NCBI GenBank assembly: GCA_963747235.1
Contig: CAVVEU010000024.1
Span: forward strand, 576,001 to 640,000
Reading direction: 5' to 3'
DNA: 64,000 nucleotides
From: an uncultured Candidatus Rokubacteria bacterium
GTDB taxonomy: Bacteria; Methylomirabilota; Methylomirabilia; Rokubacteriales; CSP1-6
Shown: positions 5,796 through 11,496 of the stretch, one piece after another
How the letters are laid out: the number at the start of each line of letters is the position of its first letter
Numbering within the stretch: the stretch's first letter is position 1
Notes under the pieces: generated by a model
What the model saw: only the letters and a program-made list of their open reading frames with translations
What the model was told of the DNA's origin: nothing
Databases searched by the model: none
Translations under genes and position numbers: made by a program

Positions 5796-7013
5796 GTGAC
5801 CAGCTCGACCCTCGAGCTCCTGAGCCATGGCCCGTTCGCGCGGATCATGCTCACGAACTTCTTCTTCTTCGGGGCGCTGAACACCTTCCTGCTCCTGCCG
5901 CTGTATATCCAGAGGCTGGGCGGCGACGAGGCGGATATCGGGCTCGTGCAGGGCCTCTACAGCGCGGCCGGCATCGTCTGCCAGCCGGTGGTGGGCGCCC
6001 TCATCGACTACCTGGGCCGCCGCTTCTTCATGCGGCTCGGCGCCGTGCTGCTCGTGGTGTCCTGCGCGCTCTTCGTGGTGGCGAGCCCGCTGCCCCTGCT
6101 CGGCGTGCTGCGCATCCTGCAGGGCGTGGCCTTCTCCGCCTTCTTCGTCGCCAACTACATCCACGTGGTGGAGATGGTGCCCGCGGAGCGGCGCGGGTGG
6201 GCGCTCGGCATCTTCGGCCTCTCGGGCCTCGTCTCCACCTCGCTGGCCCCGCTCTTCGGCGAGTTCATGATCCGCCGCTTCGGCTTTCCCACGTTCTTCA
6301 TGGCCTCCACCGTGATCGCGGCGGTGGCCACCGCGATGTGCTGGCGGGTGCGGGACGTGCGGCCGGCCGCGCTGGGCGCCCGCCCGGGCCTGCACGTCAT
6401 CCGGGAAGGGCTGCTCGAGCTGCGGCACATGCACATGGCGATCGGGCTGTTCTTCGGGCTCGGCACCGGGACCATCTTCACGTTCCTGCCGACCTTCGGC
6501 GAGGACCTGGGCATCACGAGCGTCGGCCTCTTCTACACCGCGTACGCGGCGGCGGCGATGCTGGTGCGGGTGGTGGGCGGCAACCTGATCGACGTGCGCG
6601 GCCGGCGCGCGGTGATCATCCCGTGCATGTTCGTGCAGTCCGCCGCGACCTGCATCATCGCGCTGGTCGCGATCCTGTTCGCGCCCGCGCTCCGGCTGCC
6701 GGTGCTGCCGTTCATCTTCCTGGCCGGCTTCCTGGCTGGCGCGGCCCACGGCTTCCTCTACCCGGCCATGTCGGCCCTGCTGATGGACGTGACGCCCGAG
6801 CGTCGCCGCGGCAGCGCGGTGGGCATCTTCAGCTCGGTGATCCTCGTCGGGAACTCGTTCGGGGCGATCGCCTTCGGCTACGTCGCGCACGGGCTCGGGT
6901 ACGCGGTGATGTGGAGCGCGCTCACCGTGCTGCTGATCGTCGGCTCGTTCCTGAGCGTCCGGCTGCGCGTGGGCTACGCGAGGCCGGTGACGGCGCCCGC
7001 GCCCGCGTCCTGA
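5796..7013 (+). CDS. MFS transporter
   Basis: About 12 hydrophobic segments; motif A-like GALIDYLGRR and GNLIDVRGRR. Alternative start at 5847. Confidence 0.9.
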   Translation: MTSSTLELLSHGPFARIMLTNFFFFGALNTFLLLPLYIQRLGGDEADIGLVQGLYSAAGIVCQPVVGALIDYLGRRFFMRLGAVLLVVSCALFVVASPLPLLGVLRILQGVAFSAFFVANYIHVVEMVPAERRGWALGIFGLSGLVSTSLAPLFGEFMIRRFGFPTFFMASTVIAAVATAMCWRVRDVRPAALGARPGLHVIREGLLELRHMHMAIGLFFGLGTGTIFTFLPTFGEDLGITSVGLFYTAYAAAAMLVRVVGGNLIDVRGRRAVIIPCMFVQSAATCIIALVAILFAPALRLPVLPFIFLAGFLAGAAHGFLYPAMSALLMDVTPERRRGSAVGIFSSVILVGNSFGAIAFGYVAHGLGYAVMWSALTVLLIVGSFLSVRLRVGYARPVTAPAPAS

Positions 7014-7103
7014 TCCGCCGCGCGCGCGGGCCGCGCGGTTGACTTGCCCCGGAGGCGAGCCGATACTGAGTCGCACGCCGTCGCGTGGGAGGCCCCGTCG
7101 ATC

Positions 7104-7637
7104 ATGGTGAGACGCACTCGATATCGCCGCCTGGCGCCGGTGCTCGCGCTGGGCGTTCTCCTCGTGGGCGCCCGCAATCCGGGGGAGACGCCCGCGCCGC
7201 CCGCCGCCACCCCGCAGGAAGTCACGGTGATCGGCGTGTTCAGCGATCAGCGCGGCCAGCACGGCGTGATGCTCGAGGGCAAGCGCGACAAGCGGCGGGT
7301 CCTGATGGTGATCGGGGCCGCCGAGGCCACCGCCATCGCGGTGCCGCTCGAGAACATCACGCCGCCGCGCCCGCTCACCCACGATCTCTTCCTCACCCTG
7401 TTCGGGCGGCTCAAGGTGCAGGTCACGAAGGTGGTGATCACCGACCTGCGCAACAACACCTACTACGCGACGGTGTTCCTGACCTCGAGCGGTACGGCGA
7501 TGGAGCTCGACTCGCGTCCCTCCGACGCCATCGCGCTGGCCATCCGCGCCAGGGTGCCCGTCTTCGCGGAGGAGCGCGTGTTCGAGAAGTCCGATCGGCC
7601 GCCGGGCAGCCCGGGCGGGCCGGGGGAGCGGATCTAG
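7104..7637 (+). CDS. Bifunctional nuclease family protein (DUF151) with N-terminal hydrophobic segment
   Basis: IGAAEATAIA, PPRPLTHDL and LDSRPSDAIALA motifs. Confidence 0.85.
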   Translation: MVRRTRYRRLAPVLALGVLLVGARNPGETPAPPAATPQEVTVIGVFSDQRGQHGVMLEGKRDKRRVLMVIGAAEATAIAVPLENITPPRPLTHDLFLTLFGRLKVQVTKVVITDLRNNTYYATVFLTSSGTAMELDSRPSDAIALAIRARVPVFAEERVFEKSDRPPGSPGGPGERI

Positions 7638-7641
7638 CCCC

Positions 7642-8631
7642 GTGGCGAGCGAGACGCCCCGCGCGGGCGCGCCGGCCCTGCCGCCGCACACGCCCCCTCA
7701 GAACGTCGAGGGGCAGCAGTGGGCGATCGAGCGCCGCCTGGGCGAGATCTTCGGCAAGCTCGGCGAGAAGCTCGCCGAGCTCACCGGGCGCGTCGAGGTG
7801 CAGGTCAAGCCGGAGACCTCGTTCGCCGACATCGGCGGCCTCGCCGAGGCCAAGGGCATCGTGCGGAGCTTCGTGACCGCGCTGACCGATCCCGAGCTGT
7901 ATCGCAAGTGGGGCATCGCCCCGCCCAAGGGCATGCTGATCTACGGGCCGCCGGGCACCGGCAAGACGCTGCTGGCGCGCGCGCTCGCCACCGAGGCGGG
8001 GGCCGTCTTCTACCACCTGAAGCTCGGCACGCTCACCGCCAAGTTCGGGCCCAATACCGGCGAGCTGCTGCAGGAGATCCTGGGCCTGGCGCGCGAGCAG
8101 GGCCGGGCGGTGGTGTTCCTCGATCAGGCCGACGCGCTCGCGCTCGAGCATCTCCTGCCGCCGGCCCAGGCCCGCGAGGCGGGCGCCCGCATCGTGGCCG
8201 CGCTCTGCGAAAAGCTCGATACCCTGGAAGCTTTCTCTCGGATCGTCGTGGTGGCGGCCACCAGCCGCACCGACGTGGTGGATCCCTCCCTGGTGGCCCC
8301 GGGCCGGCTCGATCGGCTGGTCGAGGTGCCGCTGCCGGACGCGGTCGCGCAGCAGCAGATCCTCGAGCTGACGCGGACGCGCGCCGAGCAGGCCGCCGAT
8401 CGGCGGCTCGTGGGCGATCTCGACTACCGCTCCCTGCTGCCGCCGATGGGCGGCATGAGCGGGGGCGAGCTCCGCGATCTGCTGCGCCGCGCGCTCGAGG
8501 AGAAGGTCCACGCGGCCGGGCAAGGCCAGGACGCGGGACTCGTCACCACCCAGGACCTGCTGCGCCAGGTGGACGTGTACCGGCGCATCCGGGCCGTCGT
8601 CGAGAAGATCCGCTACGGGCAGTACCTCTAG
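7642..8631 (+). CDS. Single-domain AAA+ protein (ARC/PAN/Cdc48 clade) with degenerate Walker B and C-terminal GQYL
   Basis: FADIGGL, PPKGMLIYGPPGTGKT (Walker A), VVFLDQAD, PGRLDR; ends ...RYGQYL*. Confidence 0.85.
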   Translation: MASETPRAGAPALPPHTPPQNVEGQQWAIERRLGEIFGKLGEKLAELTGRVEVQVKPETSFADIGGLAEAKGIVRSFVTALTDPELYRKWGIAPPKGMLIYGPPGTGKTLLARALATEAGAVFYHLKLGTLTAKFGPNTGELLQEILGLAREQGRAVVFLDQADALALEHLLPPAQAREAGARIVAALCEKLDTLEAFSRIVVVAATSRTDVVDPSLVAPGRLDRLVEVPLPDAVAQQQILELTRTRAEQAADRRLVGDLDYRSLLPPMGGMSGGELRDLLRRALEEKVHAAGQGQDAGLVTTQDLLRQVDVYRRIRAVVEKIRYGQYL

Positions 8632-8649
8632 CCCGAGCGAGGAGGCATC

Positions 8650-9396
8650 ATGCGCACACGTCGAGGAGTGAGGCACTGGTCCGGCTGGCTGGCCGTCGCG
8701 GCGGTCCTGTTCGTGCTGACGGGACCGGCCGGCGCGCAGTGGGACAAGCTGCTGAAGGGGCTGGGCGGCGGGGAGGGGAGCGCGGGCGCGGGGCTGTCGG
8801 ACGCCAAGATCGGCGCGGGGCTCAAGGAGGCGCTCCAGGTGGCCACCGAGAAGACGGTGAGCCTCACCGGAAAGACCGACGGCTACTTCTCCAACCAGGC
8901 CATCAAGATCCTGATGCCGGAGAAGCTGCGGAATTTCGAGAGCGGGCTGCGCGCGGTGGGCTTCGGTGGGCAGGTCGACGAGCTGGTGCTCGGCATGAAC
9001 CGCGCCGCGGAGCGCGCCGCGCCGCAGGCCAAGCAGATCTTCTTCGACGCCATCGGCGCGATGAGCTTCGACGACGCCCGCAAGCTCCTGAACGGCGGGG
9101 ACACCGCGGCCACCGAGTACTTTCGCGGCAAGACCACGCCGCGGCTGACCACCGCGTTCCGGCCGGCGGTCGAGCAGTCCATGAATCAGGTCGGCGTGAG
9201 CCGGCAGTACAAGGATCTGGTCGGGCGCTTCGAGTCGATCCCGTTCGCCAAGTCCCAGGCCTTCGACCTGGACGGCTACGTCGTGGACCAAGGGCTGGGC
9301 GGGCTCTTCACGGTGCTGGCGGAGCAGGAGAAGCAGATCCGCACCAACCCGACCGCCCGCGCCACCGATCTCCTGAAGGAAGTCTTCAAGCGCTAG
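8650..9396 (+). CDS. DUF4197 domain secreted protein
   Basis: Signal peptide; GLKEAL, MNRAAE and EEK-like [19 protein letters not shown] signature. Confidence 0.85.
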
Positions 9397-9430
9397 CGCG
9401 GCTCGCGGGTGGTACCATGGCGCCGCATCG

Positions 9431-9853
9431 ATGCCATCGGTCACCCGCGTGCGCGTGCGCTACAAGGACACCGACACCATGTCGGTCGTCTACTACGGCA
9501 ACTACCTGACCTACTTCGAGGTGGGGCGCGTGGAGTTCCTGCGCGAGTACGGCTGGCCCATGTCGGCGGTGAACGAGCGCGTGCACCTGCCGGTGGTGGA
9601 AGCCTTCGTGAAGTACGTGAAGCCGGCGAAGCTCGACGATCTGCTGGAAGTCGTCTCGCGGGTGAGCGAGCGCAAGCGGGCCAGCTTCCGGTTCAGCTAC
9701 GAGATCCGCAACGAGGCCAAGGAGCTGGTGGCCACCGGGCACACCGTGCACGCCTGCTGGAACCCGGCCACCGCCAAGATGATTCCCATCCCGGACTGGC
9801 TGAAGGAGATCATGCCCGATGCCGACCTCGACCCCGTCACGCCCCGACGCTGA
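9431..9853 (+). CDS. Acyl-CoA thioesterase (YbgC/FadM family)
   Basis: [26 protein letters not shown] hot-dog motif. Confidence 0.9.
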
Positions 9854-11496
9854 CCGGCAGCCCCGGCCGATCGCCGAGATCGCGCGCGAGCTCGGCCTCG
9901 GCCCGGAGGAGTGGATCCCCTACGGCCACGACAAGGCCAAGGTGCGCGTCGGCGCGCTGGCCGCCCGCCGCGATCGGCCCGACGGCAAGCTCGTGGTGGT
10001 GTCGTCCATCACCCCGACCCCGGCCGGCGACGGCAAGACCACCATGACCATCGGCATCGGGCAGGCGCTGTCGCGCGTCGGCGCCCGGCCGGTGATCGCG
10101 CTGCGCGAGCCGTCCATCGGGCCGACGCTCGGCATGAAGGGCGGCGGCACCGGGGGCGGCAAGGCGCAGGTGGTGCCGATGGAGGAGATCAACCTCCACT
10201 TCACCGGCGACTTCCACGCGATCACCTCGGCGCACAACCTGCTCGCCGCCGCCATCGACAACCACCTCCACCACGGCAACCCGCTCGGCATCGACGTCCG
10301 CCAGGTGGCGTGGAAGCGCGTCCTCGACGTCAACGACCGCGCCCTGCGCAGCGTGGTGGTCGGGCTCGGCGGGCGCCTCGACGGCGTGCCGCGCGAGGCG
10401 GGCTTCCTCATCACCTCGGCCTCCGAGATCATGGCCGCGCTCTGCCTGGCCGAGGACCTGATGGATCTCAAGCAGCGGCTCGGCCGGATGCTGGTCGCGC
10501 TGACCGCCGACGGCAAGCCGGTGACCGCCGACGCGCTCGGGGTGACCGGCGCGATGATCGCGCTGCTGCGCGACGCCATCCACCCGAACCTGGTGCAGAC
10601 GATGGAGGGCACGCCCGCGCTGGTGCACGGGGGGCCGTTCGCCAACATCGCCCACGGCTGCAACTCGGTGCTGGCCACCCGGCTCGCGCTCAAGCTCGGC
10701 GACATCTGCCTCACCGAGGCGGGCTTCGCCACCGACCTGGGCGCCGAGAAGTTCTTCGACATCAAGTGCCGGCTCGCGGGGCTCACGGCCCGACGCGGCC
10801 ATGATCGTGGCCACCGCGCGGGCGCTCAAGTACCACGGCGGGGTGCCGGTGCCGGAGCTGGACCGGGAGAACGTGGCCGCGCTCACCCTCGGACTCGACA
10901 ACCTGGAGGCGCACGTGGACGCGGTGCGCCAGTTCAAGGTGCCGGTCCTCATCGGGATGAATCGCTACCCGTCGGACACCGAGGCGGAATACGCGGCGGT
11001 GCGGGAGCGCTGCGCGCGGCTCGGGGTGGCGGTGCACGTGGCCGACGTGTTCGGGCGCGGGGGCGCGGGCGGCGAGGAGCTGGCCCGGGGCCTGCTCGCC
11101 CTCCTGGCCCGGGAGCGCTCGGCCTTCGCGCCGCTCTACGCGCTCGACGACCCCATCACGGTGAAGCTCGACACCATCGCGCGGCGGATCTACGGCGCCG
11201 ACGGCGTCGAATATCCCAAGCGGGTCGAGCGTCAGATCGCGCAGGCCGAATCCCTCGGCTACGGGAGGCTACCGATCTGCGTCGCGAAGACCCAGCGCTC
11301 GCTGTCCGACGATCCGGCCCTGCTGAATCGCCCCCGCGGGTTCAAGATCACCGTCAACGAGATCCGCATCTCGGCGGGCGCCGGCTTCCTGGTGGCCATC
11401 ACCGGTGACATCACCACCATGCCCGGGCTGCCGCGCCGTCCCAACGCCGAGAAGGTGGACGTCACGCCGGACGGCGTCATCACGGGGCTCTTCTAG
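9819..11496 (+). CDS. fhs: Formate--tetrahydrofolate ligase (frameshift near 10790)
   Basis: [62 protein letters not shown]...ITGLF. Confidence 0.95.

Follow-up and report, generated by a model that had tools for sequence, protein, structure and literature searches.

We describe a 329-aa AAA protein from soil-dwelling Methylomirabilota that is probably a third, so far undescribed kind of proteasome cap, with motor parts that have decayed in this lineage. Its gene lies in a 64,000-nucleotide window of a Candidatus Rokubacteria genome (the window being the whole stretch of DNA analysed, C24:576001-640000 of the source assembly), where it occupies positions 7642..8631 of the forward strand, stop codon included, begins with GTG and ends in codons for the motif GQYL. 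The protein has no N-domain and is referred to below as the short AAA protein. The source assembly comprises 5.57 Mb in 42 contigs, is 88% complete and has a GC content of 70.8%; the source names of homologues place the genome in Methylomirabilota (Rokubacteria). Judged from its sequence, the protein would form an N-domain-less AAA ring that docks through GQYL and, in this genome, binds ATP, hydrolyses it poorly and opens the gate of the 20S proteasome, a description to which we give an even chance of being correct.

The GQYL Tail and the Proteasome System of the Host Genome

The C-terminus of the protein reads EKIRYGQYL, with GQYL and the stop codon at positions 8617-8631. Mpa and Bpa use GQYL, in which Tyr is the penultimate residue, as their interaction motif (PMC6017811, PMC12288473), and from these two papers only the Mpa/ARC and Bpa/PafE families are known to carry it. 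Only three of the 33,566 stop-to-stop open reading frames (ORFs) of at least 80 aa in the genome end in GQYL, namely those of Mpa, Bpa and the short AAA protein, against a chance expectation of 0.011 calculated from position-specific residue frequencies. This exclusivity is the strongest single argument for a putative proteasomal meaning of the tail, and we infer the link to the 20S core from this one motif and its restriction within the genome.

A first-pass annotation of the sequence had proposed checking the host for 20S genes, and Pup, Dop, PafA, PrcA, PrcB, Mpa and Bpa all proved to be encoded. Two features of the GQYL-activator class are found here: a conserved C-terminal GQYL with a penultimate Tyr and a 20S core encoded in the same genome. 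The mpa-dop-prcB-prcA-pafA cluster lies on the same contig at 735.5-741.9 kb, approximately 150 kb from the AAA gene; dop and prcB overlap by a few bases. The Pup-proteasome cluster (L007, G000:C24:738565-743094, where G000 is the source genome) has a GC content of 61-67% per 500-base window, compared with 70.8% for the genome. Mpa scores 760 bits (759.9) against TIGR03689 and ends in TGQYL. Bpa/PafE, a 163-aa protein of a non-actinobacterial host, is encoded at G000:C13:221560-222105 (-), scores 149 bits against PF10759 and also ends in GQYL. Instead of lying between dop and prcB, the Pup gene (PF05639, 69 bits) is found on another contig, at G000:C8:301548-301688 (+).

The alignment of PrcA with the alpha subunits of Rhodococcus and M. 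tuberculosis is full-length. K52 of PrcA, which we take to be the pocket lysine of the alpha subunit, does not vary among 24 orthologues. The need for a conserved lysine in the alpha subunit is described in PMC12288473. A 303-aa ORF elsewhere in the genome, at G000:C40:484441-485349 (-), gave a weak proteasome-beta-like match (25.5 bits to PF00227 and 26 bits to the archaeal beta model); its product, distinct from both HslV and PrcB, may be an Anbu/BPH-like Ntn hydrolase.

Domain Content and Translation Start

The Pfam scan identified a classic AAA domain (PF00004) at residues 98-231 with 94.6 bits against a cut-off of 21.2, and matched no coiled-coil, OB or other N-domain family in the 329-aa protein. 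Approximately 55 residues precede the AAA module, in agreement with the first-pass claim that the N-terminus is too short for OB domains. The best-scoring NCBIfam models were PAN (181 bits), CDC48 (160), FtsH (129) and pup_AAA (106), all far below their cut-offs, and the Bpa profile (PF10759) did not match the protein. The closest solved sequences are the VAT and p97 D2 modules.

The start at 7642 is supported by the alignment of same-genus orthologues from residue 1 and by relatives' contigs, which carry A at this position and therefore an ATG start. At 71% GC, long antisense frames such as the 668-aa one at 7438-9444 (-), which spans the AAA gene, are a common artefact and do not represent genes.

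Nucleotide-Binding and Pore-Loop Motifs

Motifs were assigned from a residue-by-residue HMMER alignment to the solved VAT ATPase, with which a BLASTP comparison against the genome's own Mpa agrees. KYYG/KWVG of VAT pairs with KFGP, FIDEID with FLDQAD, ATNR with ATSR and LRRPGR with LVAPGR. In the Mpa of the same genome, the four corresponding motifs are all canonical (KYVG, FFDEMD, ASNR and LRPGR). All positions given below are on the forward strand.

Walker A (GPPGTGKT, 7945..7968, residues 102-109) is intact, and its K108 occurs in all 121 close homologues and does not vary in the non-redundant set. Pore loop 1 (8041..8052, residues 134-137) is remodelled to KFGP, again in 121/121 close homologues: the aromatic F135 is retained, and the two residues that follow, normally a hydrophobic residue and Gly, have become Gly-Pro. 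Walker B reads VVFLDQ (8110..8127, residues 157-162), with Q162 encoded by CAG at 8125-8127. Sensor-1 is ATSR (8257..8268, residues 206-209), in which S208 replaces Asn, and in the second region of homology (SRH; LVAPGR, 8290..8307, residues 217-222) the first arginine finger has become A219, with R222 retained. No other stretch of the family is as conserved as the C-terminal tail EKIRYGQYL (8602..8628, residues 321-329), a putative 20S docking motif. Canonical Walker B DE, sensor-1 Asn and two SRH arginines are present in relatives of the type found in family f7 of the phylum; DQ, Ser and A219 stand in their places here.

The coordinates and letters reported in the first-pass annotation, a 329-aa single AAA module ending in GQYL with CAG at 8125-8127, are confirmed. 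The motif changes that it listed are real and inherited, as seen in same-genus genomes and the VAT alignment, with one correction: the pore loop keeps its aromatic residue, and only the next two residues are changed. Its opinion that the substitutions are not a sequencing error also stands, since the same DQ is common to 18 other genomes of the genus and Gln occupies this position in 27/121 close database homologues.

Distribution and Phylogeny of the Family

At an E-value of 1e-60 or better, the family is present in 205 of 251 Methylomirabilota species genomes, and in 82 of 104 among those of high quality. The phylum tallies include five unpublished genomes (G034, G044, G076, G216 and G217), on which no sequence-level statement rests. 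Members measure about 308-334 aa and consist of a single AAA module without a substrate-recognition N-domain. A word-indexed search returned 120 clusters of 70-96% identity and 272-334 aa, and an exhaustive search of representatives added the distant full-length members P0121 (63% identical), P0133 (43%) and P0148 (39%), all of which end in EKIRYGQYL. A profile built from distant members then recovered 120 more proteins, nearly all of 314 aa. Atlas clusters of both size classes, retrieved in a search started from the homologue P0133, are labelled mostly as Methylomirabilota; single records are named otherwise (P0051 as Binatia, P0322 as Acidobacteriota). P0133 adjoins a Methylomirabilota f7 genome on the tree, and the lineage of P0148 is not among the 251 genomes, where its best match is 53% identical.

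A FastTree phylogeny of 203 AAA modules placed the family in a monophyletic group (support 0.992) away from Mpa, and the short AAA protein is only 31% identical to the genome's own Mpa. The GQYL tail therefore does not descend from a duplicate of Mpa. The family is sister to, or nested in, a set of longer proteins of 478-544 aa without GQYL (joint support 0.959). These longer relatives (P0247, P0175, P0191, P0199, P0211 and P0245) have a canonical KWYG pore loop and C-termini with [LMI]GF, and their N-terminal region of about 200 aa matched no Pfam family in the two proteins checked, P0211 and P0247. We considered the long proteins as in-phylum ancestors and rejected them: all 26 matches in the 251 genomes covered the AAA part only and lay at short-AAA loci.

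Conservation of the Tail and Erosion of the Motor

GQYL ends 118 of the 120 close clusters, the exceptions being one GQSL and one C-terminally partial record, and EKIRYGQYL ends 119 of the 120 proteins of the 314-aa group, the remaining one ending in GHYL. All 56 loci read from families across the phylum have RYGQYL. In a set of 30 sequences mutually less than 80% identical, KIRYGQYL was the most conserved 8-residue window (0.996; the Walker A window YGPPGTGK reached 0.963), although the database proteins in this set had been pre-filtered for a length of 300-340 aa and an ending in YL, which removed tail exceptions.

The catalytic positions vary far more. Among the 121 close sequences, R222 is retained throughout (121/121), as are the Walker A Lys and KFGP noted above. 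The second Walker B residue is Glu in 92, Gln in 27 and Asp in 2, and the Walker B Asp is kept in 111, with Ala in 9 and Gly in 1. Sensor-1 carries Asn in 54, Ser in 45, His in 14, Ala in 7 and Asp in 1; the first arginine finger is Ala in 98, Arg in 9 and another residue in 14. The 314-aa group has DE in 120/120, sensor-1 Asn in 112/120, arginine in the finger position in 114/120 and a KWY[AG] pore loop.

The 56 phylum loci can be arranged by family. Family f7 is fully canonical, and f10, f11 and f12 retain the pore loop, DE and Asn with Gly, Gln or Ser at the arginine finger. His replaces the Walker B Asp in f8 (HE), f2 pairs DD or ED with GPPGNGKT and KVGP, and f3, f4 and f5 combine K[FHI]GP with Ala at the arginine finger, as f1 does with KFGP. 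Genus g1 is the sole holder of DQ among the loci read, in 18 other genomes and in this one. Over the whole phylum the arginine finger is replaced with Ala, Gly, Gln, Ser or Cys. A further independent change at the nucleotide site is seen in L011 and L097, where the Walker A Ser/Thr has become Ala (GPPGTGKA and GPPGNGKA) and RYGQYL is retained.

As read from these alignments, the catalytic motifs are eroded independently across lineages while the tail stays fixed, and the degeneracy is not family-wide; it is seen only in derived clades, each in its own way. The first-pass annotation had treated catalytic degeneracy as a property of the family as such, which the fully canonical deep lineages contradict. 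Of the joint conservation of DQ and GQYL that it suggested examining, the GQYL half holds nearly without exception; DQ is confined to one genus, and DE is the rule in the close sequences (92/121) and in the 314-aa group (120/120).

The stem of the order-level clade is long, with 0.42 substitutions per site compared with 0.08 for the other clade. In the DQ genus, dN/dS equals 0.145 (171 pairs; median dS 0.46), comparable to the values of 0.10-0.24 in the canonical f7 family (10 pairs), which argues that the protein is functional and not decaying. Together, the conservation pattern and purifying selection suggest that nucleotide binding and the tail are conserved, and not the apparatus of hydrolysis and threading.

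Proposed Mode of Action

In classic AAA proteins, a Walker B E-to-Q change and loss of the arginine finger abolish or strongly reduce hydrolysis, and the E-to-Q change traps the protein in its ATP-bound state. The same substitution has been used to construct a trap, CLPC1-TRAP (PMC8889267). For the archaeal PAN, ATP binding triggers the association of the ATPase with the 20S core and gate opening (PMC4608255). In archaea, the gate is also opened by C-terminal peptides of motif-bearing AAA proteins, and the C-terminal motif led to the prediction, later confirmed, that CDC48 and AMA are proteasomal ATPases (PMC3493965).

We propose that the short AAA protein would form a nucleotide-bound ring, the GQYL tails of which would occupy the inter-subunit PrcA pockets of the 20S core encoded in the same genome, docking in the manner of Mpa and Bpa. 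Deep lineages, in which the site is canonical and the pore loop is KWY[AG], would probably have a minimal unfoldase cap. Rokubacteriales have lost the first arginine finger and remodelled the pore loop, and this genus has Gln for the Walker B Glu and Ser for the sensor-1 Asn, with Walker A, R222 and the tail remaining fixed. Since the arginine finger, pore loop, Walker B and sensor-1 are changed and Walker A, R222 and the tail are kept, this protein would be expected to bind ATP and to hydrolyse it poorly or not at all. It may act as a cap that depends on ATP and opens the 20S gate to peptides or unfolded proteins without threading them. More tentatively, and with some doubt, the lineages might record how a proteasomal AAA motor became a pseudo-ATPase step by step: an N-domain-less unfoldase cap would have lost its arginine finger, pore-loop geometry, Walker B Glu and sensor-1 in Rokubacteriales and would persist only as an ATP-binding ring with six GQYL tails that opens or occupies the gate. 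Such a ring would be an ATP-sensing, non-hydrolysing regulatory particle of a kind not known from any proteasome.

Gene Neighbourhood and Hints of Expression

A BFN/DUF151-domain gene (7044..7637, +) lies upstream of the AAA gene, separated from it by a 4-base gap; its likely real start is the ATG at 7104, and its N-terminus resembles a signal peptide. A sigma-70-like promoter match at 7039..7067 (+), a consensus match only, is the sole one in 6800-10000, and ATG 7104 follows just after it. Downstream are a DUF4197 gene with a signal peptide (8650..9396, +), which is present in only part of the family's loci, and a 4HBT-type thioesterase gene (9431..9853, +), which is syntenic with the AAA gene across the order. 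No terminator-like sites were found between these four genes, and Rfam gave no match in the window. A formate-tetrahydrofolate ligase gene at 9819-11496 is split over two frames by a one-base shift near 10785-10795; either the assembly is wrong here or the gene is a pseudogene.

The order BFN, AAA, thioesterase holds in f1, f2, f4, f5 and L011 and is absent from f7 to f13, and the BFN arrangement appears together with the clade that lost the arginine finger. The BFN/DUF151 proteins read among the orthologous loci (L011, L095-L119 and L228-L244) begin with a basic and then a hydrophobic stretch, as signal peptides do, which makes a cytosolic partnership of BFN and AAA unlikely. A domain with nuclease annotation would not normally be expected to begin in this way. 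Canonical-type loci have other neighbours: GNAT (in 18-21 of the 48 loci in which crude gene calling kept the AAA gene), DUF72, GntR and IlvD. As functional evidence we set all of these neighbours aside (BFN/DUF151, DUF4197, GNAT, DUF72, GntR and IlvD), as they are conserved at the order level only, exported or uninformative. The gene context neither supports nor contradicts a proteasome link.

In four metatranscriptome runs from three studies, contigs of close relatives cover the AAA gene. The BFN/AAA junction is bridged in X15 (records 5 and 6), X17 (record 18) and X18 (record 27), and the AAA/DUF4197 junction in X15 (record 8). These contigs are a weak hint of expression, as DNA may be present in RNA libraries and a contig is not a single transcript.

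Co-occurrence with the Proteasome

A Pup ligase was found in 210 of the 251 phylum genomes. It accompanies the short AAA gene in 173 genomes and is missing from 32 that have the AAA gene; among genomes without the AAA gene, 37 have the ligase and 9 do not. Among the 11 genomes assembled in at most 10 contigs (figures that may be rounded), 8 have both genes, 2 have the ligase only, 1 has neither, and none has the AAA gene alone. The two genomes of f6, each 100% complete, lack the AAA gene, the ligase and PrcA. Both observations speak for a dependence of the AAA protein on the proteasome.

Several observations weigh against a proteasomal role. As the ligase is present in 210/251 genomes anyway, its co-occurrence with the AAA gene is weak and confounded evidence. 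The 32 genomes with the AAA gene yielded no Pup ligase match; five of them, which are 92-100% complete, gave only PrcB-like matches of 25-29 bits, and both g46 genomes (G218 and G219) are also without PrcA and Mpa. Conversely, the closed genomes G017 and G053 have PrcA and the proteasome without the short AAA gene, so the proteasome does not need this protein. Physical linkage is missing as well: proteasome genes were found near the AAA gene in 0/68 canonical-type metagenome loci, none is linked to it in the window (the cluster being 150 kb off) or in the 56 phylum loci, and its neighbours encode exported or housekeeping proteins. Finally, with F135, R222 and Walker A intact, residual hydrolysis or threading would be compatible with the sequence.

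Some of the missing clusters may be explained by assembly. Bpa, at 153-183 bits, is retained in 4 of the 5 complete-looking genomes that have the AAA gene and no ligase, and the GC content of the cluster deviates from that of the genome (61-67% vs. 70.8%); on these grounds it is likely, although unproven, that the proteasome cluster is often lost in binning. Bpa is also retained in 5/6 ligase-negative genomes of genus g1. In f10, the AAA gene is present in 6/6 genomes and the Pup ligase in 1/6, with PrcA in 0/5, a set that includes the unpublished genome G044; Mpa lies on contigs of 1.4-3.1 kb in 3/5, so the locus is fragmented and f10 is not a clear case of AAA without a proteasome. Two other families show the opposite pattern, with the ligase in 19/20 and the AAA gene in 2/20 genomes of f13, and in 14/15 and 4/15 genomes of f8, respectively. 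Bpa was found in 52 of the 251 genomes, nearly all of them in f1, which makes the short AAA protein, with 205/251, the commoner second GQYL protein of the phylum.

Alternative Explanations

The tail might serve a partner other than the 20S core, or act within the ring, its likeness to Mpa and Bpa being convergent. The absence of linkage to proteasome genes at every locus examined would fit this, as would the 32 genomes with the AAA gene and no Pup ligase match, some of them 92-100% complete, and the operon-like BFN/DUF151 arrangement conserved in the order; in plants, DUF151 proteins have been purified together with an AAA+ trap (PMC8889267). However, the other two ORFs ending in GQYL in this genome encode proteasome activators, the retention of Bpa in 4/5 complete-looking genomes without the cluster points to binning loss, the BFN proteins with their signal-peptide-like N-termini are unlikely cytosolic partners, and the BFN linkage is absent from canonical lineages that have the same tail. 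We regard this explanation as unlikely. Alternatively, the protein may dock on the 20S core through GQYL without activating it, as a competitor of Mpa and Bpa, a storage cap or an assembly chaperone, by analogy perhaps with the HbYX-bearing assembly factors of archaea and eukaryotes. All the evidence for docking applies equally to such a protein, the loss of the arginine finger and the remodelled pore loop fit one that no longer threads substrates, and this genome encodes three GQYL proteins for a single alpha ring. Nothing separates this possibility from gate opening except that C-terminal peptides with a penultimate Tyr alone open the gate in known systems (PMC3493965). For pure blocking, some additional feature would have to be present, and the protein shows none, so that we think such a protein unlikely.

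The substitutions could also be tolerated variants of a cap that still works as a slow, ATP-driven unfoldase. Walker A, R222 and F135 are kept, canonical relatives belong to the same family, and dN/dS matches the low values of the canonical clade. Against this, four elements (Walker B, sensor-1, arginine finger and pore loop) have changed together in the genus, the E-to-Q change is of the trapping type exemplified by CLPC1-TRAP, and other lineages carry different changes in the same motifs, which suggests relaxed constraint on hydrolysis; a slow unfoldase is thus improbable in our view. An anti-phage or other stand-alone AAA protein of the IetA/IteA or TRIP13 type appears very improbable indeed. 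The matches that suggest it are weak (75.6 bits to IetA in PADLOC, and 71.8 bits to IteA in NCBIfam against a cut-off of 510) and lie at a generic AAA level, with the PAN, CDC48 and FtsH models scoring higher; no partner gene of such systems stands beside the AAA gene, and vertical inheritance across the phylum, with 205/251 genomes, speaks against it.

Relation to Known Proteasomal Regulators

NCBIfam scores and the AAA tree uphold the first-pass view that the protein is separate from ARC/Mpa, Bpa and Cpa. With Mpa/ARC (TIGR03689) it shares a classic-clade AAA module, a C-terminal GQYL and PrcAB in the same genome. It differs in scoring 105.7 bits against a cut-off of 504.75, over profile positions 173-375 only, in lacking the coiled coil, the double OB domain and the beta-grasp domain that precedes the tail, and in its separate branch on the tree; its catalytic motifs are eroded, whereas those of the genome's own Mpa are canonical. 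PAN (NF003069/TIGR01242) is the best-scoring named family and likewise has a single AAA module and a penultimate-Tyr tail directly after the lid domain. However, the scores of 181 and 173 bits fall short of the cut-off of 500, and the matches start at profile position 93 or 76; with a start at position 93, the coiled-coil and OB part of PAN is missing. The short AAA tail is, moreover, GQYL and not HbYX.

Bpa/PafE (PF10759) resembles the short AAA protein in its GQYL tail and in being accessory, absent from many proteasome-bearing genomes, and its ATP-independent gate opening offers a functional model for the degenerate clade, although Bpa is unrelated to the short AAA protein in sequence and is no ATPase. 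Cpa and CDC48/VAT (TIGR01243) are classic AAA proteins too, but with two modules instead of one, and the score of 160.3 bits compares with a cut-off of 802.65. Cpa has no penultimate-Tyr motif, and its last five residues are irrelevant to binding (PMC6017811). A closer parallel is the archaeal network of PAN, CDC48 and AMA (Forouzan et al. 2012), in which unrelated AAA families share one C-terminal docking motif (PMC3493965); there, the proteins have N-domains and active ATPase sites, whereas the short AAA protein is bacterial and N-domain-less, with an eroded motor.

By the features that define Mpa/ARC, PAN, CDC48/Cpa and Bpa, the short AAA family falls outside all of them, and from sequence it appears best described as a family-level variant of proteasomal AAA regulators with lineage-specific motor decay. 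Among the papers listed on GQYL and the proteasome, the titles and abstracts gave no description of such a family, and among those listed that combine the proteasome with Rokubacteria or Methylomirabilota there was no treatment of the proteasome in this phylum. The literature on UBact contained nothing relevant, the term GQYL is absent from the ProEnd paper, and PMC8755798 makes no mention of Walker B.

The biology of the bacterial proteasome has been worked out almost only in Actinobacteria. If our reading is correct, the concept of a network of proteasomal regulators, drawn from archaea, would apply to bacteria as well, with the short AAA proteins as a third GQYL family. The lineages of this family would then offer naturally graded AAA rings, from active to hydrolysis-dead ones, in which the effect of ATP binding alone on the 20S gate could be followed.

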